Positions 22,581 through 58,631 of a stretch of 64,000 bases of DNA are shown one piece after another; within the stretch, counting starts at the first letter, position 1, and each line of letters begins with the position of its first letter. Source of the DNA: an uncultured Gammaproteobacteria bacterium (GTDB lineage: Bacteria; Pseudomonadota; Gammaproteobacteria; Competibacterales; JAHEDQ01); the NCBI GenBank assembly GCA_963783675.1, contig CAWAOU010000016.1:98478-162477 (forward strand). The letters are read 5' to 3'. The notes under the pieces were generated by a model. It was not told where the DNA came from. It searched no databases and saw nothing but the letters and a program-made list of their open reading frames with translations. The translations under genes and the position numbers were made by a program.

Positions 22581-23897
22581 ATGAGCATTGCACGACGTAA
22601 CTGGGTTCCCAATCAGAGCGAAGCACGTGTACAGAGCATCGCGGAACGCACGGCGCTGGAGAGCAGCGCCCAGAGTCTTGCTCAGATCAACGCTCTGGCA
22701 GAACGCAACCGGGCCATCCACGAAAGGGAGTGTTTTAATCTGAACCCCGCGACCAACGTCATGAATCCGAAGGCCGAGGCCCTGTTGGCCTCCGGCATCG
22801 GGTCGCGCCCGTCATTGGGCTATCCGGGGGACAAGTATGAGATGGGCCTGGAAGCCATCGAAGAAATCGAGGTCATCGCGGCCACGCTTTGCGCTGAGGT
22901 GTTTGACGCCCGGTTCGCCGAGATAAGGGTGCCATCGGGCGCCATCGCCAACCTCTACGGCTTTATGGCGACCTGCAAGCCGGGGGACACGATTATCGCG
23001 CCCCCTGCGTCCATTGGCGGGCACGTCACCCACCACGCCGCAGGATGCGCCGGCCTTTACGGATTGAGAATCCTGAACGCACCGGTACGCGTCGATGGGT
23101 ACACCGTCGATGTGGACGCGCTGCGCGATCTGGCCCTGCGCGAGAAGCCCCGGCTGATCACGGTCGGCGGAAGCCTCAACCTGTTCGAGCACCCGGTACG
23201 CGAGGTCCGCGCCATCGCCGACGAACTGGGCGCCAAGGTGATGTTCGACGCGGCCCATCAATGCGGGATCATTGCCGGCAAAGCCTGGGCGAACCCCCTG
23301 GCAGAGGGGGCGCACCTCATGACCATGAGCACCTACAAGAGCCTTGGTGGTCCGGCGGCGGGACTGATCGTCTCCAACGACGCCGAGATTGCAGAACGCC
23401 TCGACGCCATCGCCTTCCCGGGGATGACCGCAAACTTTGATGCCGCAAAGTCGGCCGCTCTGGCTGTGACCATGCTCGATTGGCGCGAACACGGACGCGC
23501 CTATGCCAGGGAAATGATCGACATGTCCATGGCCTTGGCGCAGGCGCTGGACGCTCGGGACGTGCCCGTTTTTGCAGGGAGCCGAGGGTTCACCTCGTCG
23601 CATCAATTCGCCGTCGCGGCGGCGACCTATGGCGGCGGTCAGGCGGCGTCGAAAAGGTTGCGCCAGGCGGGTTTTCTGGCCTGCGGGATCGGCTTGCCGA
23701 TAGAAGACGTCGCGGGCGATATGAATGGGCTGCGCATAGGCACACCGGAACTGGTCAGATGGGGTATGACGCGAACCCATGCGGACCGACTGGCGCAGTT
23801 GATCGCAAAGGCGCTGACCAGCGCCGATCCGGCCGAGATGCTGCCCGAAGTGTCTGCCTGGCGACAGGAATTCGATCGGCTGCACTTCGTGATTTGA
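22581..23897 (+). CDS. serine hydroxymethyltransferase-fold PLP enzyme (divergent GlyA-family paralog)
   Basis: 438-aa ORF with AGGAG 7 nt upstream. NLNPATNVMNP, GYPGDKYEMG and HLMTMSTYKSLGGPAAGLIV parallel the SHMT blocks. The expected PLP-Lys sits in STYKS rather than the canonical TTHKT. Confidence 0.85.
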   Translation: MSIARRNWVPNQSEARVQSIAERTALESSAQSLAQINALAERNRAIHERECFNLNPATNVMNPKAEALLASGIGSRPSLGYPGDKYEMGLEAIEEIEVIAATLCAEVFDARFAEIRVPSGAIANLYGFMATCKPGDTIIAPPASIGGHVTHHAAGCAGLYGLRILNAPVRVDGYTVDVDALRDLALREKPRLITVGGSLNLFEHPVREVRAIADELGAKVMFDAAHQCGIIAGKAWANPLAEGAHLMTMSTYKSLGGPAAGLIVSNDAEIAERLDAIAFPGMTANFDAAKSAALAVTMLDWREHGRAYAREMIDMSMALAQALDARDVPVFAGSRGFTSSHQFAVAAATYGGGQAASKRLRQAGFLACGIGLPIEDVAGDMNGLRIGTPELVRWGMTRTHADRLAQLIAKALTSADPAEMLPEVSAWRQEFDRLHFVI

Positions 23898-25930: not shown

Positions 25931-27118
25931 GGAACCTCTGCAGATTTCCCGGCAGGGTATAATGCCGATCATTGGTCCACACCCCTTCGACGCCCACAAC
26001 CGAGAGACACCAGATGAAGCAAACCACCTTTGCCTCGTTGAGCTACCCGTCGAAGAAGATGCAGACGAGACGGGAAAAGTTTCTGGCGGAGATGGATCAG
26101 GCGGTGCCTTGGGCGCAGTTGATCGCGCTGATCGAACCTCATTACACCAACAAGGGCCAACGCGGGCGCTCGCCGATGCCGCTTCAGAGCGTGCTGCGGA
26201 TCTACTTCATGCAGCAGTGGTATGCAATGTCCGATCCGGCGATGGAAGATGCGCTCTACGAGATTGAATCGATGCGCCGTTTTGCCGGGCTGGAGTTGAT
26301 CGACGACGCCTTGCCTGATGAGAGCACAATTCTCAGGTTTCGCCACCTGCTCGAGCGCCGCCAGTTGACGAAGCGGATGTTGGACACGATCAACACGCTG
26401 CTGGAGGAACGAGACGCGCTTCTCAAAGGTGGCACCATGATCGATGCCACGATCATTCACGCCGCGCCCTCGACGAAGAACCGGGCGAAGGCACGTGATC
26501 TGGAGATGCACCAGACCAAGAAAGGCAACCGGTGGTACTTCGGGATTAAGCTGCAGGTGGGGGCGGACGTGAACAGCGGTGCCGTGCACACCGTCTCGGC
26601 CACGCCGGCCAACGCGCCCGACATGAGTGAGATGCCGAATCTGCTGCGCGAGGACGATCGCTCGGTGCTCGGTGACGCGGCTACGTGAACAAAGGTATCA
26701 AGCAGGGCGGCCCGCGAGGCGGGCGTTTACTGGGGTGTGGCGCTGAAAGCCCAGCCGAAACGCCGATTGGGTGGCGGGCAGAAGCGGCGCAATCGAAAGA
26801 TGTCCTCGATTCGCAGTCGCGTCGAGCATGTATTTCGGGTGCTGAAGCGCCAATTCGGCTACGCCCAAGGTCGATACCGCGGCTTAGCCAAGAATGCGGC
26901 ACAGGTCTTTACCCTGATCGCGCTCACCAATTTGTACCTGAAGAGGCGGCAGTTGATGGCCTGAGCGGACCCGTCCGCCCGGAATCTGCGAACCGGGGCG
27001 AAACGGGCCGGAAGCAGACGCAAAACAGGCAGGAAATCGCCAAGTCATCCGGTTTTCTGTACGCGGACAGCGCCTCATGGAGATTCTGTCGCCTTTTCGC
27101 AAATTCTTCAGAGGCTCC
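25931..27118 (+). mobile_element. IS5-family insertion sequence (about 1.19 kb), transposase disrupted
   Basis: Imperfect terminal inverted repeats: GGAACCTCTGCAG (25931-25943) versus the reverse complement of CTTCAGAGGCTCC (27106-27118), which is GGAGCCTCTGAAG. The internal gene is clearly IS5-like. I could not identify a clean target-site duplication. Confidence 0.8.
26014..26964 (+). pseudogene. IS5-family DDE transposase, interrupted
   Basis: MKQTTFASLSYPSKKMQTRREKFLAEMDQAVPWAQLIALIEPHY...MEDALYEIESMRRFAG...MHQTKKGNRWYFGIKLQVG parallels E. coli IS5 InsH. There is an in-frame TGA at 26686-26688 (GDAAT*). The C-terminal part SSIRSRVEHVFRVLKRQFGYAQGRYRGLAKNAAQVFTLIALTNLY resumes in the original frame. 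Confidence 0.85.
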
Positions 27119-50344: not shown

Positions 50345-51082
50345 TCATGCTGCCGGAGCGTCTTCTTGCCCGGCGGTTGGTTCCACCAAGTCGAGGTAGG
50401 CATACCAGGTCGCATGGCCCAGCAGTGGAAAGATCACGATCATGCCTATGAGCAACGTAGCGAATCCCACGCCGACGATTAGCACGCACAGGGCACCCCA
50501 CACGAGCATCACCGGCAGATCCGCACCCAGCGTCACGCGGAGCCTGGTGTGCATTGCGGTGCCCGCGTCGACGTCCCGGTCGATGATCATCGGCACCGAG
50601 ACAACCGAGAGGGCGGAGACAACGCAGGCCAGTATTCCTCCGACCACCAGATAGGAAACCATTTGGGCCGCGGTCAAATTGACCAGAACATCGCCCCACA
50701 TGGTCTCGAAGTAGTTTGGGCCAACGCTGCCAAAGGTCATGAACAGCATCAGGCCGGACAGGCCAAACCAGGCGAAGCTGAACAGCAACAGCGTGCCGGC
50801 GTAGCGCAACAAGCTCTCGCGATGCTCCGAGAGAGACTGAAGTGAGGTATCGAAATTCGAAACCCCGCCACTGGTCCGCAATCGTGACAGCTCACACAAT
50901 CCTGTGGCCATGATCGGGCCAACTAACAGGAATCCGGAAATCGCGGCGGCATGCGCGTAAGGAAGCTGTCCGATGGTGAGAATCAGGGCACCCAGAATGC
51001 TCACCAAAACGCCGCAGCCAAGGCTGGCACCCTTGTGATGGAGCAGGTCATCCCATCCCCTGCTCAAGGAAGGTCTGATCAA
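50345..51082 (-). CDS. DUF2189-like integral membrane protein (5' end possibly disrupted)
   Basis: 245-aa ORF beginning at a TTG. LSRGWDDLLHHKGASLGCGVLVSILGALILTIG plus four or five further hydrophobic segments fit my recollection of DUF2189. No ATG or GTG start is available in frame. Confidence 0.65.
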   Translation of the reverse strand: MIRPSLSRGWDDLLHHKGASLGCGVLVSILGALILTIGQLPYAHAAAISGFLLVGPIMATGLCELSRLRTSGGVSNFDTSLQSLSEHRESLLRYAGTLLLFSFAWFGLSGLMLFMTFGSVGPNYFETMWGDVLVNLTAAQMVSYLVVGGILACVVSALSVVSVPMIIDRDVDAGTAMHTRLRVTLGADLPVMLVWGALCVLIVGVGFATLLIGMIVIFPLLGHATWYAYLDLVEPTAGQEDAPAA

Positions 51083-51160
51083 TTGATACGAATCGCGTTT
51101 CGGTCCACAAGGGCGCAGATGCGAGGCCCCCGGCGCGATCGCAGCAATTGACCTTCCTTA
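51066..51160. repeat. ~95-bp imperfect palindrome overlapping the DUF2189 start
   Basis: The left arm AAGGAAGGTCTGATCAATTGATACGAATCGCG (51066-51097) pairs with the right arm CGCGATCGCAGCAATTGACCTTCCTTA (51134-51160). The paired blocks are 9 + 6 + ~9 bp with small bulges, around a 36-nt centre. Confidence 0.7.
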
Positions 51161-52111
51161 ACCAGGTGAAGGGTCGAGTGAGGGGAACACGCCGAATGTC
51201 CGGCGTCCGCAGAAAATGGCCACTCGGATCGCTTAACATACTCATCCTGGTTCGTCCGTGCGGAGATTCTCCGCATCTTAAACATCGTCCCCCGACAAGA
51301 GGTATGTCAAAAAAGACGAGTCGCCGAAGCGCGAGCGCGGAGCCGACATCCGAGTCGAAGTCCAATGTGTCAACTCTTCGGGCGTCAAGATCGACTACAA
51401 GGTTCCACGATCTTTCGAATTCCTGACGGACTCCCAAATGAGCGCAGGCCAGTCCTGCGCCCACCCGCCTAGCGCCTGGGCGCTCCTCGCCTTGCTGAGA
51501 TGCAACGCACTTGCGGGAAGAGACACCAGCCTGCATCGCTTACCGATTTATCGTTTGATGTAGATCGCTGCCGTGGTATTGAGGTGAAATCCTCGATGCC
51601 AAGCTGAATGAGCCGGTTAACCCAAGTATCGGGCGCCCGACCGGCGATGATTGCGGCCACACAAGGCAATCTATGAGGCCCCGTCTATAATAAGCAGACG
51701 GGCTCTACCATCGGATGCTCCGCGGTCACGGCGATTCGGGTATCGCATTCGGAGGCAATACAGATCGATCTTCGACATCCCGCGGCGGCAGTAGACCCGC
51801 TGGGAGGGTTCGTTAGAGCAGCGTGCCGCTTGACGTGAAATGCATCCGGAACAAGCTCCTTAGTCGCCCAGTGCGCTGGAAAACGATCGCTGCCGACATC
51901 ATTGCGGCAAACAAAGAACGCTAAACTCAGTAACGAGGACATGGTGACGCTGACATCAGGCCATCCGGAACCGGCCAGCAAACCCTCACGCAGGCCGGAG
52001 TCACTATTCCAGCGGCGCTGAACCACGTCTAAGCGATTGCAGCCGCTGGCGCGCCGGTAGTGCTCTATTGCGCGGCTTCATCAACGATATTCAATCGGAG
52101 CACCGAAAACT

Positions 52112-53902
52112 ATGCGAATTCTGCTTATTGCTTCTGCATACAACGGGTTAACCCAGCGCGCACATGTCGAACTGGACACGTTGGGACATGAGGTTTCCAT
52201 CACGCTGGCGCTGAGTGAAGCGGAAATCAGGCAGGCACTCGCCTTCTTCGAGCCTGATCTCATCATCTGCCCATTCCTTCGAGAAAGGGTACCGGACGAT
52301 GTATGGCAGCAACATGTTTGTATCATCATCCACCCTGGCATCAAGGGCGATCGGGGTCCGTCCTCACTCGATTGGGCAGTCATGGAGAACGAAGCGGAAT
52401 GGGGCGTGACCGCTTTGCAGGCCGCAGAAGAAATGGATGCCGGCGATATTTGGGCGACATCGAATTTTCCGATGAGACCGGCAACCAAAGCCAGTCTTTA
52501 CCGGCGCGAAGTAACGCAAACCGCGATCAAAGCGATGTTGGAAGCCGTGAACCATTTCTCAACCGGAACATACCGACCGGAACCTCTCAATTACAGCAAC
52601 ACCGATGTTCGTGGAACACTGCGCCCATCGATGAAACAAAGCGAACGGGCAATTGACTGGAACATCGATAGAACAGAGGACATCGTCAGAAAAATCAATG
52701 CCGCAGACAGCAATCCCGGATTACTGGACAGGATCAATGGAGAACCTTTCTATCTGTACGGCGTGCATAGAGAGGGAATACTGCAAGGCTCTGTTCCTGG
52801 CGAAATAATCGCCCAGCGACATGGTGCGATCTGCCGAACCACCATCGACGGTGCAGTATGGATCACGCATTTGAAGCGAACAAAAGCTCAACGAGTGCCT
52901 TTTTACAAACGATGGACAGTCGCCCAGAGACTGGATTTCAAACTCCCGGCGGCGACGCTCCTCGGAGCAACCTTAAACAACATCGACGAATCAAACATTG
53001 AACCGCTGTTCATGGGGGAAGAGGAAACCTACAAAGAAATTTGGTACCGGGAAAGAAATGAAATTGGTTACTTGCACTTCGACTTCCACAATGGCGCCAT
53101 GAGCACACAACAATGTCATCGTTTGCGCGAAGCCTATCGCCTCGCCCGTGAACGCCCCACCCGGGTCATCGTTTTGATGGGAGGGCAGGACTTTTGGTCC
53201 AATGGAATCCACCTCAACGTTATCGAAGCCGCAAAGGACCCAGCCGCCGAGTCCTGGCGAAATATCAATGCTATTGATGACGTAGTGCGAGAGATCATCA
53301 CAACAACGACGCATTTGACGCTTTCCGCGGTGTGGGGCGGAGCAGGTGCTGGTGGCGCAATAATGCCGTTGGCCGCTGACCGCGTTTGCGCGCGTGCAGG
53401 CTGCATTATGAATCCTCATTATAAAACCATGGGTTTGTACGGTTCCGAATACTGGACTTATCTGTTACCCAAGCGAATCGGAAAAGCCAGGGCTGTCGAA
53501 ATGATGCAAACACCCCTACCCCTCGGCATGAAGAAAGCCGTCGAAATCGGTATGATCGACAATATATTGTCTGACAACTTCGACGAATTCGGCGATCAAA
53601 TAGCGCAGATCGCCGAATCAATGGCCGACGATGCGAATTTCGGAAATGCTCTTCAGCACAAGATCAAACGTCGCGCCAAGGACGAAGAAATCCGTCCACT
53701 GGCCGCGTATCGCGCAGCTGAACTCAAGCAAATGAAAATGAATTTCTCCGGCCAATTCTACGGCGGCGATCAGAATTATCATCAGGCCCGTTACAATTTC
53801 GTTCACAAAATTCGGCCCAAGCAAACTGCCGAATACCTGGCTAGGCACCGGCGGATTGATAGTCGAATGTTTGAAGAGTTAACGCAACCGCTCAACTATT
53901 AG
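52112..53902 (+). CDS. HypX/HoxX-like two-domain protein (N-terminal formyltransferase fold + C-terminal crotonase/enoyl-CoA-hydratase fold)
   Basis: 596-aa ORF. MRILLIASAYNGLTQRAHVELDTLGHEV...IIIHPGIKGDRGPSSLDWAVMENEAEWGVTALQAAEEMDAGDIWAT closely parallels HypX N-termini as I recall them. The C-terminal strings are RVIVLMGGQDFWSNGIHLNVIEAA and AVWGGAGAGGAIMPLAADRV. Confidence 0.9.
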   Translation: MRILLIASAYNGLTQRAHVELDTLGHEVSITLALSEAEIRQALAFFEPDLIICPFLRERVPDDVWQQHVCIIIHPGIKGDRGPSSLDWAVMENEAEWGVTALQAAEEMDAGDIWATSNFPMRPATKASLYRREVTQTAIKAMLEAVNHFSTGTYRPEPLNYSNTDVRGTLRPSMKQSERAIDWNIDRTEDIVRKINAADSNPGLLDRINGEPFYLYGVHREGILQGSVPGEIIAQRHGAICRTTIDGAVWITHLKRTKAQRVPFYKRWTVAQRLDFKLPAATLLGATLNNIDESNIEPLFMGEEETYKEIWYRERNEIGYLHFDFHNGAMSTQQCHRLREAYRLARERPTRVIVLMGGQDFWSNGIHLNVIEAAKDPAAESWRNINAIDDVVREIITTTTHLTLSAVWGGAGAGGAIMPLAADRVCARAGCIMNPHYKTMGLYGSEYWTYLLPKRIGKARAVEMMQTPLPLGMKKAVEIGMIDNILSDNFDEFGDQIAQIAESMADDANFGNALQHKIKRRAKDEEIRPLAAYRAAELKQMKMNFSGQFYGGDQNYHQARYNFVHKIRPKQTAEYLARHRRIDSRMFEELTQPLNY

Positions 53903-53941
53903 AATCAGTTGCTTTGATAGCATGCCGAGAGGGAATTACCG

Positions 53942-54781
53942 ATGTTCTTTAGAGACTGGGTGGTTCTGTTGGTAGACGATGAGCCTGATGTGCTCACCAT
54001 GTCTAAGTTGTTGATGAGAAAATTCGAGGTCTATGGCCTTCCGATCAAGATCTACACCGCGAAAAGTAAAGCCGAGGCAGTAGAGCTACTCGCGAACGAT
54101 CTTGAAGTGGCAAGTTCGCTGGCGGTTGCGTTTATTGACGTGGTCATGGAGACGGATTCAGCGGGCTTGGAACTATGTGAGTATATTCGCGATGACATGG
54201 GGAACAGACTCAGTCAGCTTTTCATACGAACCGGTCAGCCGGGAATAGCGACCGAGATGGATGTAATCGATCGATACGATATAAATGGCTATTTCACCAA
54301 GGTCGAAACAAGCCAAACCAAACTCTATTCCGTCGTAAAAAGCAGTGTGCGCCAGTATCTGTTATTCGGCATGTCGCTGGCAACCATTGGAGTTCTAAAC
54401 GATCTGATTGCTGCTTCGAAGTCCCGAGACGCAATCCTGGATGCCATCCATCACTTGTGTGGGTACAATATAGAGCTGGAGGATACTCCGCGATGGCTCA
54501 TTGTCGATGATGAAGTTTTATTCGAGGAAGAAATCGACGCAGCGAGGGGCGTCGAAACCTGCGCAGAAATGCTGTCACTCGAAGGTATCGACCTGAATCC
54601 CGCGGGTGACAAATACGTTAAGGGAAATGATGGTTTTCAATTAATACACATAACTAAGAAACCGACCCAAGCAGAGACAACATATCTCTTCCAAACGAGA
54701 TTCTCTCCGCCAGAACACGTCGTCAGCTTGATGCATAGCGTGTTCTCAGGTCTGGCAACGGCGTGGCGACAATCCTCTTGA
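53942..54781 (+). CDS. response-regulator receiver (REC) protein with an unassigned ~150-aa C-terminal domain
   Basis: 279-aa ORF with GAGGGA upstream. REC landmarks are VLLVDDEPDV, the phospho-acceptor context VAFIDVVMETDSAG, and INGYFTK. I recognise no DNA-binding or enzymatic motif in the C-terminal half. Confidence 0.8.
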   Translation: MFFRDWVVLLVDDEPDVLTMSKLLMRKFEVYGLPIKIYTAKSKAEAVELLANDLEVASSLAVAFIDVVMETDSAGLELCEYIRDDMGNRLSQLFIRTGQPGIATEMDVIDRYDINGYFTKVETSQTKLYSVVKSSVRQYLLFGMSLATIGVLNDLIAASKSRDAILDAIHHLCGYNIELEDTPRWLIVDDEVLFEEEIDAARGVETCAEMLSLEGIDLNPAGDKYVKGNDGFQLIHITKKPTQAETTYLFQTRFSPPEHVVSLMHSVFSGLATAWRQSS

Positions 54782-54946
54782 TATTGAATCAGGGCGGATC
54801 GTTTTGTGTGCCAACAACAACGTTGCTCGGGAGGCTCTGATCTATTCCTGAATCTGCGCCTTAAATCACACATTTCACCCTTCAATTCGCTTTGTCCAGA
54901 CTAATTCAGGGATTCCCCAGGATGAGCATATCGAGCAAATGATCTA

Positions 54947-56143
54947 ATGATAAAGGAAAGTGTCAAACACATTCCCTACTTTAGCGAGCTCAGTGACGCC
55001 GAATTGCAGGAGATCGTCGACACCGGGCATGAGAAAACCTTTGCACCTGATCAGTTGGTTTTTGAGCAGGGAGACCGCGGGGACTATATGTATGTCATCG
55101 TTGAAGGTCAGGTTCGGGTTTTCTACCAAACGGAGGGGGAGGAAATCACTTTGTCGACGCTCGCTAGGGGCGCGTTCTTCGGTGAAATGGCACTGATCGA
55201 TGATGGTCCACGGTCCGCCAGTGTCCGAACGCTTGTCTCGTGCCATTTCTTTTTATTGGGACGAGCGGAGTTTCTCGAACTACTCGCCCGTTCGACCCCT
55301 ATGCTTTCCGATGTCATGCGAGGACTGAGTGGCAGGATTCGGACGTTGGGGCGTGATTTTGTCGTCACATCACTGCAGAAACGTCACGTTGAGGACCAGG
55401 CCGAAATCGATCGGCACCGTGCCATATCGCAGATGGTGGCGGGGGTTGCCCACGAGATCAACACACCCATCGGGATCGCCAGCCAAGGGGCAAAGTTTAT
55501 CAGCGAAACACTGAGCCCGGCATTGATTGCGAAGTTGGGCGAAGACGGTGACGCTTTGGAAGCGGTGACGGATGTTGTGGATGCGGCACGGCTCATCGAT
55601 GCCAACATCCAGCGTGCCGACAGATTGATCGGATCGTTCAAGAATATCTCTGTCCGGCAGATCTCTGCCGCACTGGAGACGATTGATCTTCGCGAATTGC
55701 TGGATGAAATCATTGCGCTCTATCCTGTCCAAAGCAAGAGTGCCAATTTGACGATCCATATCACCGACAATCTGGGTGATGATCGCGTTTGGACGGGCTT
55801 TCCCGGCTACCTGACGCAGGTTCTGTTGAACCTGATCCAAAATGCTCAAATCCACGCCTATCCAGCGGATTCAAACGAGACCGTGGAGATTGTGTTGGCG
55901 AAAAACGCGGAATGCTACATAGTCGAGGTGAAGGATTTTGGCTGCGGTATCAATGAGGACGATCTTAAAGAGGTGTTCACGGCATTCTATACGACGAAGC
56001 GCGGCCAAGGGGGTACCGGGCTGGGGATGGCTATCGTCCATAGTCTGGTAACGGACGCTCTGCGAGGTACGATCGAAACGAGTTCTACAATCGGACAAGG
56101 TACGAGCGTATCCATTCGTTTCCCGAAACAACTGAAGGTCTGA
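54947..56143 (+). CDS. sensor histidine kinase with an N-terminal cyclic-nucleotide-binding domain
   Basis: 398-aa ORF. The cNMP-binding string is FFGEMALIDDGPRSASVRT, the H-box is VAGVAHEINTPIGIA, and the G2 box is KRGQGGTGLGMAIVHSLV. There are no TM segments, so it is predicted to be cytoplasmic. Confidence 0.9.
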   Translation: MIKESVKHIPYFSELSDAELQEIVDTGHEKTFAPDQLVFEQGDRGDYMYVIVEGQVRVFYQTEGEEITLSTLARGAFFGEMALIDDGPRSASVRTLVSCHFFLLGRAEFLELLARSTPMLSDVMRGLSGRIRTLGRDFVVTSLQKRHVEDQAEIDRHRAISQMVAGVAHEINTPIGIASQGAKFISETLSPALIAKLGEDGDALEAVTDVVDAARLIDANIQRADRLIGSFKNISVRQISAALETIDLRELLDEIIALYPVQSKSANLTIHITDNLGDDRVWTGFPGYLTQVLLNLIQNAQIHAYPADSNETVEIVLAKNAECYIVEVKDFGCGINEDDLKEVFTAFYTTKRGQGGTGLGMAIVHSLVTDALRGTIETSSTIGQGTSVSIRFPKQLKV

Positions 56144-56532
56144 CCCAAGGGTTAGAACAATAAAACGCTGCGCGGCGGACCTGCGCTTCAAAGCACCGCG
56201 GCCCCCAACTTCTAGGCCTGACCCGACCATTCCTACGTCTACAGGCACAGCTTAATCGGGCCGTGTAAAGGAGTGATGGTGAGTTTGTAACCGGCGGGTA
56301 AAGTTTCTGTGAAGCTGCGTAATCAAGAACCTTGCGGCTCGAGCGTCACCGGAGTAACCCTGGTCACGGCGCCCGTGTATCCGAGTAGCGTTTGTCGGTT
56401 TGCCGGAAGTTAAGGTGGCAACCCAGAGCCACTACCCGGTGCCCGGCAACGGGCTTGCGGCTGGCCCTTGGAAAGCGGTAGCGGGGTATTTGAGCGCCTG
56501 GAGCTGGGTTTCCGAGTTGGAAGGATAACGAC

Positions 56533-57927
<1,395 letters not shown>

Positions 57928-58070
57928 GCGGCGCACCGATTGCCCAACCCAGTGCTGTTTTTAACGCCATGGCGCGGCGCCAATGACCCCATCGCCCTAC
58001 GTCCGAAATGCCAGGATGGCCGCGGTCCGGAACGGGCCTTAGGCGACAGGATTGCTCGTTTTGAGAACCG

Positions 58071-58631
58071 TCAGTCGCCACCTTGGCGCAGCAGGACGAC
58101 GGATCGGCTCAGTGCCACTCTGGGTCGGCCCTTCTCTGAGAATCCTGCACGCCGGGCGGCCTCTACGCTGGCTTCGAACGCGTCCCTTTCGACATGGATC
58201 TTGGGCTCGACGATATGCAAGAGTGCGCCCGCGTTGAGCACCTCTCGCACCTGCTTGAACAAGTTCTCAGGGTTCGGAACTTCGTGAACCATCCAGAAAG
58301 CAACGGCAAATCCGAACCGCGGATCTTTGCTGAGCCCCAAATCGTTTGCAGTGGATTTGACGAATTCGGCGCGTTCCAAGAGCCCGACGCGCTCAAGGCG
58401 TCGCCGGGTCATCGCGAGCATATGTGCTTGCAGATCAACCGCGACCACCAAGCCATCAGGGCCGACCAGCCGCGCCAGGCCCTCGCTATTGAAGCCCGCC
58501 CCGCATCCGATGTCGAGTACATGCATTCCGGGGCGAACCCATTCCCCGAAGATTTGTTCGGGATCGTAGAGTAACCGGCGGATCGGATTGTCGAAACTGC
58601 GCACGAACCACCAGGGACAAACATGGGCCAT
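58071..58631 (-). CDS. class I SAM-dependent methyltransferase (small)
   Basis: I prefer the ATG at 58631, with GAGGAG upstream, giving MAHVCPWWFVRSFDNPIRR.... Motif I is VLDIGCGAGFNS, followed by VVAVDLQAHML. The ORF-track extension to 58880 is R-rich and unlikely. Confidence 0.8.
   Translation of the reverse strand: MAHVCPWWFVRSFDNPIRRLLYDPEQIFGEWVRPGMHVLDIGCGAGFNSEGLARLVGPDGLVVAVDLQAHMLAMTRRRLERVGLLERAEFVKSTANDLGLSKDPRFGFAVAFWMVHEVPNPENLFKQVREVLNAGALLHIVEPKIHVERDAFEASVEAARRAGFSEKGRPRVALSRSVVLLRQGGD

Follow-up and report, generated by a model that had tools for sequence, protein, structure and literature searches.

A hypX-like Gene Lies with Response Regulator and Sensor Kinase Genes

We analyzed a 64-kb stretch of DNA from an uncultured gammaproteobacterium (contig CAWAOU010000016.1; "the window" is this whole stretch of 64,000 nucleotides), in which a gene for a homolog of HypX, the carbon monoxide (CO) synthase of [NiFe]-hydrogenase maturation, is followed by genes for a response regulator, here called REC-X (gene recX), and for a sensor histidine kinase. 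An earlier note on this DNA had drawn attention to the three genes, and their common orientation, their coordinates and the gaps of 39 and 165 nt between them all checked out:

52112..53902, + strand: hypX-like gene, 596 aa, identified by its Pfam architecture, its match to PDB entry 6j0p and its class A position in the neighbor-joining (NJ) tree described below
53942..54781, + strand: recX, encoding the 279-aa response regulator REC-X, 39 nt after hypX
54947..56143, + strand: gene for a soluble sensor histidine kinase of 398 aa, 165 nt after recX

The trio is AT-richer than its flanks, as had been remarked. Specifically, the G+C content (GC) is 0.516 for hypX, 0.483 for recX and 0.530 for the kinase gene, compared to 0.607 for the whole window, which places the three genes 8 to 12 points under the window average. 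The absence of hyp and hydrogenase genes from the 64 kb was also borne out: no [NiFe]-hydrogenase or Hyp signature motif was present in any frame of the window, and no hydrogenase or Hyp Pfam family was detected among the 46 window open reading frames (ORFs) scanned. The same scans revealed ordinary chromosomal content, namely a Bat/MoxR operon, ATP-binding cassette (ABC) transporters, two resistance-nodulation-division (RND) efflux systems, a deformylase and MgtE, together with toxins and transposase/integrase genes. Among named sequences, the window MoxR protein is closest to that of an Arenicellales MAG (74% identity). The window hypX is therefore found without the hyp/[NiFe]-hydrogenase cluster context.

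The 596-aa Protein Is Apparently an Intact HypX Homolog

The full HypX architecture that had been assigned to the 596-aa ORF was recovered by profile and structure-based comparisons, and the four peptide motifs quoted from it are present in the translation. Pfam placed Formyl_trans_N (7.1e-09), Formyl_trans_C (2.5e-10) and ECH_1 (7.3e-19) within this one protein, and residues 1 to 583 aligned to the crystallized HypX of Aquifex aeolicus (PDB 6j0p; E=2.6e-157). The protein thus joins an N-terminal half of the formyltransferase type to a C-terminal half of the crotonase/enoyl-CoA-hydratase type, in the size class of about 560 to 600 aa. Its identity is 45% to Cupriavidus necator HypX and, as estimated from the alignment, about 50% to A. 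aeolicus HypX.

In A. aeolicus HypX, His74, Asp80 and Asp109 form the proposed formyl-transfer triad, and Tyr416 and Glu426 are needed for decarbonylation of formyl-coenzyme A (CoA); the R. eutropha equivalents of the latter two are Tyr439 and Glu449, mutation of which is cited in the same paper as giving a HypX-minus phenotype (PMC6802093). An alignment to structurally characterized HypX, one of the checks suggested in the earlier note, revealed that all five proposed catalytic residues are kept in the window protein, as H74, D80 and D109 of the triad and as Y437 and E446, the equivalents of Tyr416 and Glu426. None of the five varies in an alignment of 16 sequences, which covers class A HypX proteins (those linked to REC-X, see below), two HypX proteins of the orphan type and that of C. 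necator. The residues listed as tethering CoA are R9, Q15, R131 and R542, and S194, Q195 and N306 (PMC6802093). When these contacts were placed by hand on the alignment of window HypX with 6j0p, Q15, R131, S200 (=S194) and N327 (=N306) were found to be kept, N201 (=Q195) and K566 (=R542) to be conservative changes, and R9, replaced by A9, to be the sole contact lost; R9-type contacts to the CoA 5′-diphosphate were reported not to be crucial for CoA binding (PMC6802093). Judged from these comparisons, the window protein is a bona fide HypX homolog that is apparently intact catalytically, and its predicted reaction converts N10-formyl-tetrahydrofolate via formyl-CoA to CO.

REC-X Combines a REC Domain with a C-Terminal Domain of Its Own

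The Pfam REC match of the 279-aa protein encoded 39 nt downstream of hypX falls under the gathering score (23.0 vs. 30.2 bits). However, D12, D13, D66 (the phospho-acceptor), T97 and K120 are invariant across 36 homolog sequences, and these signature residues together with the fold secure its identity as a REC-domain protein, as first described, despite the sub-threshold score. An AlphaFold2 (AF2) model of REC-X, with a pLDDT of 89.8 for the whole protein, contains a REC domain, a long linker helix (residues ∼125 to 158) and a compact α/β C-terminal domain (residues ∼160 to 279), which reached a pLDDT of 93.3 when modeled separately. Foldseek returned significant solved relatives through the REC half only, the best REC-only structural match being the hydrogenase regulator HupR with a target-normalized TM-score of 0.78; we take HupR to be the HoxA counterpart in Rhodobacter. 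For the C-terminal domain, Foldseek gave no PDB match at E<0.001, only a weak resemblance to GAF-, longin- and profilin-like sandwiches, and Pfam detected no domain in residues 140 to 279. As modeled, REC-X is devoid of a DNA-binding or enzymatic output domain, and it would thus most likely signal via protein–protein contact or ligand binding.

Several other assignments for REC-X were considered and not adopted. A full-length Foldseek match to a 6oap-type dual-sensor kinase was dominated by the REC half, and the domain-only model had no significant match, so no fold was taken from it. The C-terminal domain was not retained as a haem or metal gas sensor, as it has no invariant Cys or His and a single, nearly invariant His near the C terminus. 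Nor is REC-X a truncated HoxA: it is without the sigma-54 AAA+ and helix-turn-helix (HTH) domains of that protein, and a phmmer search with HoxA found no REC-X at E<1e-8. Residues 140 to 158, at the end of the linker helix (window 54359-54415), are borderline hydrophobic (KD19 = 1.74). A membrane anchor was discarded here because polar residues occur in the homologs and the helix is packed against the C-terminal domain in the model; we judge it to be a buried packing helix.

The Kinase Carries a Canonical Cyclic Nucleotide-Binding Cassette

The third gene had been described as encoding a soluble histidine kinase with a cyclic nucleotide (cNMP)-binding domain, and its domains agree with this: Pfam detected cNMP_binding (8.4e-25; 87 bits vs. 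a cutoff of 27.5) and HATPase_c (5.5e-24). The HisKA match is weak (19.5 bits), yet the H-box AGVAHExNTP (AGVAHEINTP in the window, with phospho-acceptor H169) is invariant in class A kinases, as are the G1/G2 boxes DFGCG and GGTGLG. No transmembrane-grade segment is present in the window kinase (maximum KD19 = 1.35), and the term soluble therefore holds. The phosphate-binding cassette FGExAL..PR(S/T)A.V, which reads FGEMAL...PRSASV in the window, is invariant in class A cNMP kinases, and G79, E80, R89 and A91 do not vary across them. At the sequence level, this canonical and invariant cassette points to a nucleotide ligand rather than haem, and a CooA-like haem sensor was rejected as a reading of the domain on the same ground. 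Pfam found no MHYT domain, the CO-sensing domain discussed below, in the window kinase, and the MHYT profile was without a match in window 42-64 kb. No cyclase gene was detected in the Pfam scans of the window ORFs.

The hypX–recX–Kinase Module Recurs in Alpha- and Gammaproteobacteria

Among species-representative genomes, a scan that constitutes a sample rather than a census yielded at least 80 HypX loci. These and metagenome loci (numbered here with the prefix L) were sorted by profiles for REC-X, the kinase and the C. necator Hyp/Hox proteins into class A (hypX–recX–kinase), class B [hypCDE(ABF)–hypX, often followed by hoxA–hoxBC–hoxJ] and class C (orphan hypX with neither class A nor class B partners). 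The combination of hypX–recX with a kinase gene recurs in at least 10 independent genome loci and at least 8 metagenome loci (L001-L008, L012, L013, L093-L100 and L172), and its carriers are Methylocystis, Methylomicrobium, Methyloglobulus, Methyloterricola and uncultured Gammaproteobacteria. The neighborhood check proposed in the earlier note, a search for recurring REC and kinase partners, was hence positive across Alpha- and Gammaproteobacteria. The conserved arrangement in the homologs is hypX, then a gene of 278 to 295 aa that carries no Pfam annotation (REC-X), plus a sensor kinase; it was observed with HypX identities to the window protein of 77% in two long contigs of one ENA sample, 71% in an NCBI metagenome-assembled genome (MAG), 65% in a Methylomicrobium MAG and in Methylocystis echinoides, and 63 to 64% in Methyloterricola oryzae. 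A REC-X homolog search returned a large full-length family, whose longest-contig values equal those of the HypX matches one for one.

In every class A locus recX lies directly downstream of hypX. In most loci the kinase gene follows this pair, in Methylocystis (L007) it runs convergently to it, and in Methyloterricola (L172) it precedes it, which leaves hypX–recX as the fixed core. Intergenic gaps within the module are mostly 10 to 39 nt. The kinase also varies in kind: cNMP-binding kinases are present in the window and in L001-L005, L007, L092, L093, L099 and L172, and MHYT-PAS kinases in L006, L012 and L013, which are from Methylomicrobium and Methyloglobulus, as well as in the metagenome loci L094 and L096-L098. 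Pairwise identities of HypX correlate with those of REC-X (r=0.99) and of the cNMP kinase (r=0.97). Because it recurs across distant taxa, the linkage of the trio exceeds chance.

REC-X accompanies a particular part of the HypX family. All REC-X genes among the genome matches listed go with a HypX that shares at least 63% identity with the window protein, and REC-X was found in 0 of the 78 listed genome loci with a HypX of 55% identity or less; a 604-aa HypX group at about 60% identity is without REC-X and of the orphan type. The NJ tree unites class A in one group, which is nested among the class C lineages, and sets class B apart as a large clade, in whose hyp-linked loci hypE lies directly 5′ of hypX. 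No hyp or hydrogenase gene was found in the fetched DNA, up to 8 to 10 kb per side, around the ∼18 class A loci, and HoxB and HoxC homologs are absent from these loci as well as from the window. One MAG, Methyloglobulus sp. MAG_AAO_AS.71, holds two HypX proteins, the REC-X-linked L013 (63% identical to the window protein) and L018 (51%, on a short contig).

Further signaling genes surround the trio in L001 (3873-9250 and 14520-17068) and in the equivalent part of L004, the 77% relatives. They encode a HAMP hybrid kinase along with a single-domain REC, a sigma-54 activator, a REC-HATPase_c_2 protein and a REC-guanylate-cyclase-domain protein, the last of which could be a local supplier of the nucleotide sensed by the kinase.

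The Kinase and REC-X Also Occur Without HypX

When metagenomes were scanned with the REC-X alignment, the matches listed fell into two groups. Homologs with at least 56% identity had hypX immediately upstream wherever upstream DNA was present (L093-L100), and full-length homologs at 39 to 49% identity were without HypX (L101-L116). The latter are paired with the same cNMP_binding-HisKA-HATPase kinase, as checked in L101:3982-8831, L114:8001-10076 and L116:776-2843. No substitute enzyme could be named for these HypX-less pairs, whose neighbors are unrelated (pyruvate dehydrogenase E1, a CHAT protease, a tetrapyrrole methylase and a desaturase). Because the same pairing is found without HypX, the cNMP kinase and REC-X would constitute a self-standing two-component system, joined to HypX in the class A lineage and apparently uncharacterized as a system.

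The REC half and the linker are conserved in both REC-X sub-families; the C-terminal domain is not. Nine C-terminal residues are invariant in HypX-linked REC-X (W185, F194, G222, D223, Y225, F250, F254, P257 and W275), and when HypX-less homologs are added, G222 is the only C-terminal position still invariant. Thus, the putative output surface of REC-X changes with the presence of HypX. This change fits a HypX-specific interaction, of which it is no proof.

MHYT Genes Lie Beside Orphan hypX

Work of 2024 showed that CoxC owes its responsiveness to CO, for which copper is required, to its MHYT domain (PMC11347149). When ORFs flanking class A and class C hypX genes were clustered, signaling proteins were the most recurrent neighbors. 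MHYT proteins are prominent at the orphan loci, where the following were identified by Pfam:

L015:7194-9920, cyanobacterium: MHYT-PAS-GAF-kinase beside orphan hypX
L024:11736-14156, Peribacillus huizhouensis: MHYT-PAS-GGDEF-EAL protein beside orphan hypX
L037:7905-8672 and L070:9004-9864, two Gammaproteobacteria: stand-alone MHYT proteins beside orphan hypX
L083:11784-12800, Kitasatospora: stand-alone MHYT protein beside orphan hypX

The MHYT profile also matched at orphan loci L076 and L084. Among the loci listed, it was positive in 10 of 49 class A or C loci and in none of 43 class B loci (Fisher p=0.0014), and MHYT adjacency was seen in 5 lineages, at 7 of the 28 listed class C loci that have at least 3 kb of upstream DNA. 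The class C MHYT genes are always less than 100 nt from hypX. To our knowledge, CO sensing has been backed by experiment for no membrane domain other than MHYT, and its adjacency is the strongest hint of a CO-signaling link for HypX. Because the window kinase is without MHYT, this hint concerns orphan HypX proteins more widely and not directly the window locus.

Orphan hypX genes have other neighbors too. In some loci these are acyl-CoA dehydrogenase or aldehyde dehydrogenase genes. A DJ-1/PfpI-AraC regulator is encoded directly upstream of orphan hypX in several methanotrophs (L062:8837-9910, L027, L077 and L087), and the same regulator family is found upstream of the class A module in Methylomicrobium (L006/L012). 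In Ferrimonas, a RelA_SpoT-type small alarmone synthetase gene lies directly downstream of orphan hypX (L052:11776-12549). The plasmid genes of L010 (Acaryochloris marina pREB1) and L011 (Mycetohabitans rhizoxinica pBRH01) are annotated "hydrogenase maturation protein," and no hyp, hydrogenase, REC-X or MHYT gene is present within 9 kb of either; the host of the Mycetohabitans copy is an endofungal symbiont.

Interpretation: Proposed Signal-Gated CO Synthesis and Its Alternatives

We tentatively favor the interpretation, to which we assign slightly less than even chances, that the locus couples a HypX-type CO synthase to a two-component system, apart from any hyp/hydrogenase operon, and that CO synthesis is signal-gated. 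In this scheme, a cyclic nucleotide would bind the N-terminal domain of the kinase and set its autophosphorylation, and the phosphoryl group would then move to D66 of REC-X; both proteins have intact phosphotransfer motifs. REC-X would act by protein–protein contact through its C-terminal domain, with the conserved surface particular to the HypX-linked sub-family, and its most economical target would be the co-encoded HypX. CO synthesis would thereby become a signal-gated output, and the CO could be destined for a [NiFe]-hydrogenase encoded elsewhere or for a CO-responsive target such as MHYT sensors. The earlier note had suggested that the product of the enzyme might be an output or input of a signaling circuit or, alternatively, that a mobile module might supply CO to a different metallocenter. 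The analysis bears this out in part, namely for the intact HypX, the recurring REC and kinase partners and the fit to a mobile module.

A number of points weigh against this interpretation. The adjacency and co-divergence of REC-X and HypX indicate co-inheritance, not physical contact, and the HypX-less pairs suggest that REC-X has, or had, an output independent of HypX. That hypX has regulator and kinase genes for neighbors is not unusual in itself, since C. necator hypX precedes hoxA and hoxJ, and the module could be a variation on hydrogenase regulation. The window kinase has no gas-sensing domain, and the source genome may elsewhere encode hydrogenases that need the window HypX. Finally, the genome and metagenome locus counts are samples, and the HypX phylogeny is a simple NJ reconstruction that carries no support values.

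The strongest alternative, which we regard as possible but rather unlikely, is the conventional one, in which HypX provides the CO ligand to one or more [NiFe]-hydrogenases encoded elsewhere in the genome under oxic conditions and the two-component genes accompany it or hitch-hike. This is the sole role of HypX in the searchable literature, recent reviews treating it solely as a hydrogenase maturase, and all residues for the known HypX chemistry are kept in the window protein. On C. necator pHG1, hypX immediately precedes hoxA, which is followed by hoxBC and then hoxJ, and the best REC-only match of REC-X is, as noted, a hydrogenase regulator. Many aerobic methanotrophs, moreover, have [NiFe]-hydrogenases, and methanotrophs are the main class A carriers. 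However, neither the 64-kb window nor the DNA fetched around the ∼18 class A loci holds a hyp or hydrogenase gene, and class A stands phylogenetically apart from the hyp-linked clade, with its hypE directly before hypX. The Methyloglobulus MAG carries a second HypX in addition to its class A copy, REC-X is devoid of the AAA+ and HTH parts of HoxA, and no regulatory hydrogenase is adjacent.

Extended beyond the window, signal-gated synthesis leads to a broader proposal: HypX proteins outside hyp operons, comprising the REC-X clade and the MHYT-adjacent orphans of cyanobacteria, Bacillota, Actinomycetota and Gammaproteobacteria, might be dedicated endogenous CO synthases whose product serves, independently of hydrogenase, as a signaling gas. 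The gate would be the relay from cNMP kinase to REC-X to HypX, and the read-out would be copper-MHYT sensors coupled to kinase or cyclic di-GMP (c-di-GMP) outputs. In this generality we consider the proposal doubtful.

The direction of signaling could also be reversed, with HypX making CO constitutively as a cue, for example of one-carbon (C1)/folate status, that the two-component system relays via REC-X. In the Methylomicrobium/Methyloglobulus branch the module kinase does carry MHYT, and orphan lineages fuse MHYT to kinase or GGDEF-EAL outputs beside hypX; the responsiveness of the CoxC MHYT domain to CO lends this arrangement a precedent (PMC11347149). Nevertheless, the kinases of the window, L001-L005, L007, L099 and L172 use the canonical cNMP cassette and not MHYT, and the presence of the cNMP kinase in HypX-less REC-X pairs makes it the apparent ancestral partner. 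As the C-terminal domain of REC-X likewise offers no invariant Cys or His to suggest a haem or metal gas sensor, we find CO as the input improbable.

We think it more improbable still that orphan and class A HypX proteins no longer release CO and catalyze other acyl- or formyl-CoA reactions, such as formyl-CoA production or formyl removal. Measured HypX activity is confined to the hyp-linked clade, the identities to the characterized enzymes are modest (45% for C. necator and, by estimate, about 50% for A. aeolicus), the R9 contact has become Ala in the window protein, and acyl-CoA or aldehyde dehydrogenase genes lie beside some orphans. Set against this, the five catalytic residues are invariant in class A, orphan and C. 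necator HypX, mutation of the Tyr/Glu equivalents abolishes HypX function in R. eutropha (cited in PMC6802093), R9-type contacts are dispensable for CoA binding according to the same paper, and CO as the product agrees with the repeated occurrence of a CO-sensing domain next to HypX. A mere coincidence of three unrelated genes in one AT-richer island, for which the a priori commonness of signaling genes and a 165-nt gap that could hold the kinase's own promoter might be adduced, is hardly credible given that the same three families stay together in Alpha- and Gammaproteobacteria, co-diverge at r=0.97-0.99, and keep their membership when their order is shuffled.

Comparison with Known Systems

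With the HypX/HoxX proteins of C. necator, Rhizobium leguminosarum and A. aeolicus, window HypX shares the two-domain architecture over its full length, and with characterized HypX also the proposed catalytic residues and most CoA contacts. It differs from them in belonging to a separate clade, outside an hypABFCDE operon, and in having REC-X rather than hypE as its partner. The gene order on C. necator pHG1 is hypA-B-F-C-D-E-X, then hoxA, hoxBC and hoxJ, so there, too, genes for a response regulator and a histidine kinase come after hypX on the same strand. HoxA, however, is a REC-sigma54 AAA+-HTH transcription factor, whereas REC-X is without such domains, and in contrast to HoxJ–HoxBC, the module is without the regulatory hydrogenase HoxBC and the window kinase senses via a cNMP-binding domain.

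CoxC of Afipia carboxidovorans (MHYT-LytTR) has its MHYT domain in common with the module kinases of Methylomicrobium and Methyloglobulus and with the neighbors of orphan hypX in five lineages. Unlike these, it senses external CO for CO oxidation genes and is not tied to a CO-producing enzyme, and the window kinase, as described, has no MHYT domain. CooA, of the CRP family, and RcoM are haem-based bacterial CO sensors and one-component DNA-binding regulators. CooA senses through a homolog of cNMP-binding domains, the kind of domain found at the N terminus of the window kinase, but the kinase domain keeps the canonical Gly-Glu ... Arg-Ser-Ala cassette. In bacterial nitric oxide (NO) units, genes for H-NOX or NosP sensors lie beside histidine kinases or diguanylate cyclases. 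The HypX loci resemble these in that a diatomic gas is tied by adjacency to two-component or c-di-GMP signaling, as exemplified by Peribacillus hypX and its MHYT-PAS-GGDEF-EAL neighbor. The NO units, however, encode the sensor and not a gas-producing enzyme, whereas the conserved element of the HypX module is the predicted gas synthase.

The enzyme itself belongs to a known family. By contrast, the wiring of HypX with REC-X and a variable sensor kinase and the adjacency of HypX to MHYT appear to be new: the searchable literature yielded no description of either, in line with the earlier note's remark that no description of a HypX-REC-cNMP-kinase trio was known to its author. No paper naming both "MHYT" and "HypX" was found there, nor one tying HypX to MHYT or to cNMP-type kinases. 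An intact HypX clade away from hyp genes, together with MHYT-adjacent orphans, raises the possibility that bacteria make CO deliberately, under signal control. Were this true, it would amount to a bacterial endogenous CO pathway comparable to haem-oxygenase-derived CO signaling in animals, and it would suggest where the long-enigmatic MHYT domain obtains its physiological ligand and give the uncharacterized cNMP-kinase and REC-X system a function. Even if the conventional role were the true one, the aerobic supply of the CO ligand would still be uncoupled from the hyp operon and under cyclic nucleotide control. Cultivated carriers of class A or orphan HypX include Methylocystis echinoides (GCA_027923385.1), Methyloterricola oryzae (GCA_000934725.1), Methylomicrobium spp. 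(among them strain Wu6), Peribacillus huizhouensis (DSM 105481) and Kitasatospora spp. (among them NBC_00085).

Module Boundaries and Surroundings

The three-gene module was probably acquired horizontally. It is present in Alpha- and Gammaproteobacteria at about 65% HypX identity, and the idea of a mobile module, raised in the earlier note, fits this spread, the GC deficit and the break in similarity to metagenome contig L092 after the kinase gene. The features around the module are the following:

50345-51082, − strand: DUF2189 gene, flank upstream of the trio
51083..52111, no strand: ∼1-kb upstream stretch without recognizable gene, RNA family or consensus promoter
53797..56193, no strand: stretch 98.5% identical to metagenome contig L092 (blastn of L092 against the window)
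56533-57045, − strand: GNAT gene, flank downstream of the trio
59902-60192, − strand: ParE toxin gene, in the mobile-looking stretch after the module
60567-61595, + strand: integrase-core (rve_3) gene, in the same stretch
25972-26688: DUF772/DDE transposase gene, elsewhere in the window

The near-identity to L092 ends in complete divergence ∼50 nt past the kinase stop codon. Beyond this point L092 encodes an unrelated OmpR-type regulator and a PAS hybrid kinase, and the window encodes the GNAT toxin, VIT1, a methyltransferase, the ParE toxin and the integrase-core gene. The end of the L092 similarity is the right-hand boundary of the conserved module. No convincing direct or inverted repeats bound the AT-richer trio.

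On the left, the stretch 51083-52111 presumably contains the promoter and left boundary of the module. Its GC is near genome level, in contrast to that of the trio, and its ORF fragments have no Pfam matches at E≤1. Upstream of hypX, no sigma-70-like site was found on the + strand and no sigma-54 site, the pattern count for the latter equaling chance expectation. No Rfam family, folate/ZTP-type riboswitches included, was detected in the window at gathering thresholds.

The DUF2189 and GNAT genes that had been named as flanks were both confirmed by Pfam. Just past the module, window 56533-61595 is variable and mobile-looking, and the GNAT acetyltransferase gene with which it begins leaves no room upstream for an antitoxin gene. 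At window 22581-23897, 28 kb from hypX and adjoining ABC transporter and GMC oxidoreductase genes, is a gene for a pyridoxal phosphate (PLP) enzyme resembling serine hydroxymethyltransferase (SHMT; Pfam match of 138 bits, with weaker lyase and aminotransferase matches). A folate/C1 tie between this enzyme and the substrate of HypX is conceivable.

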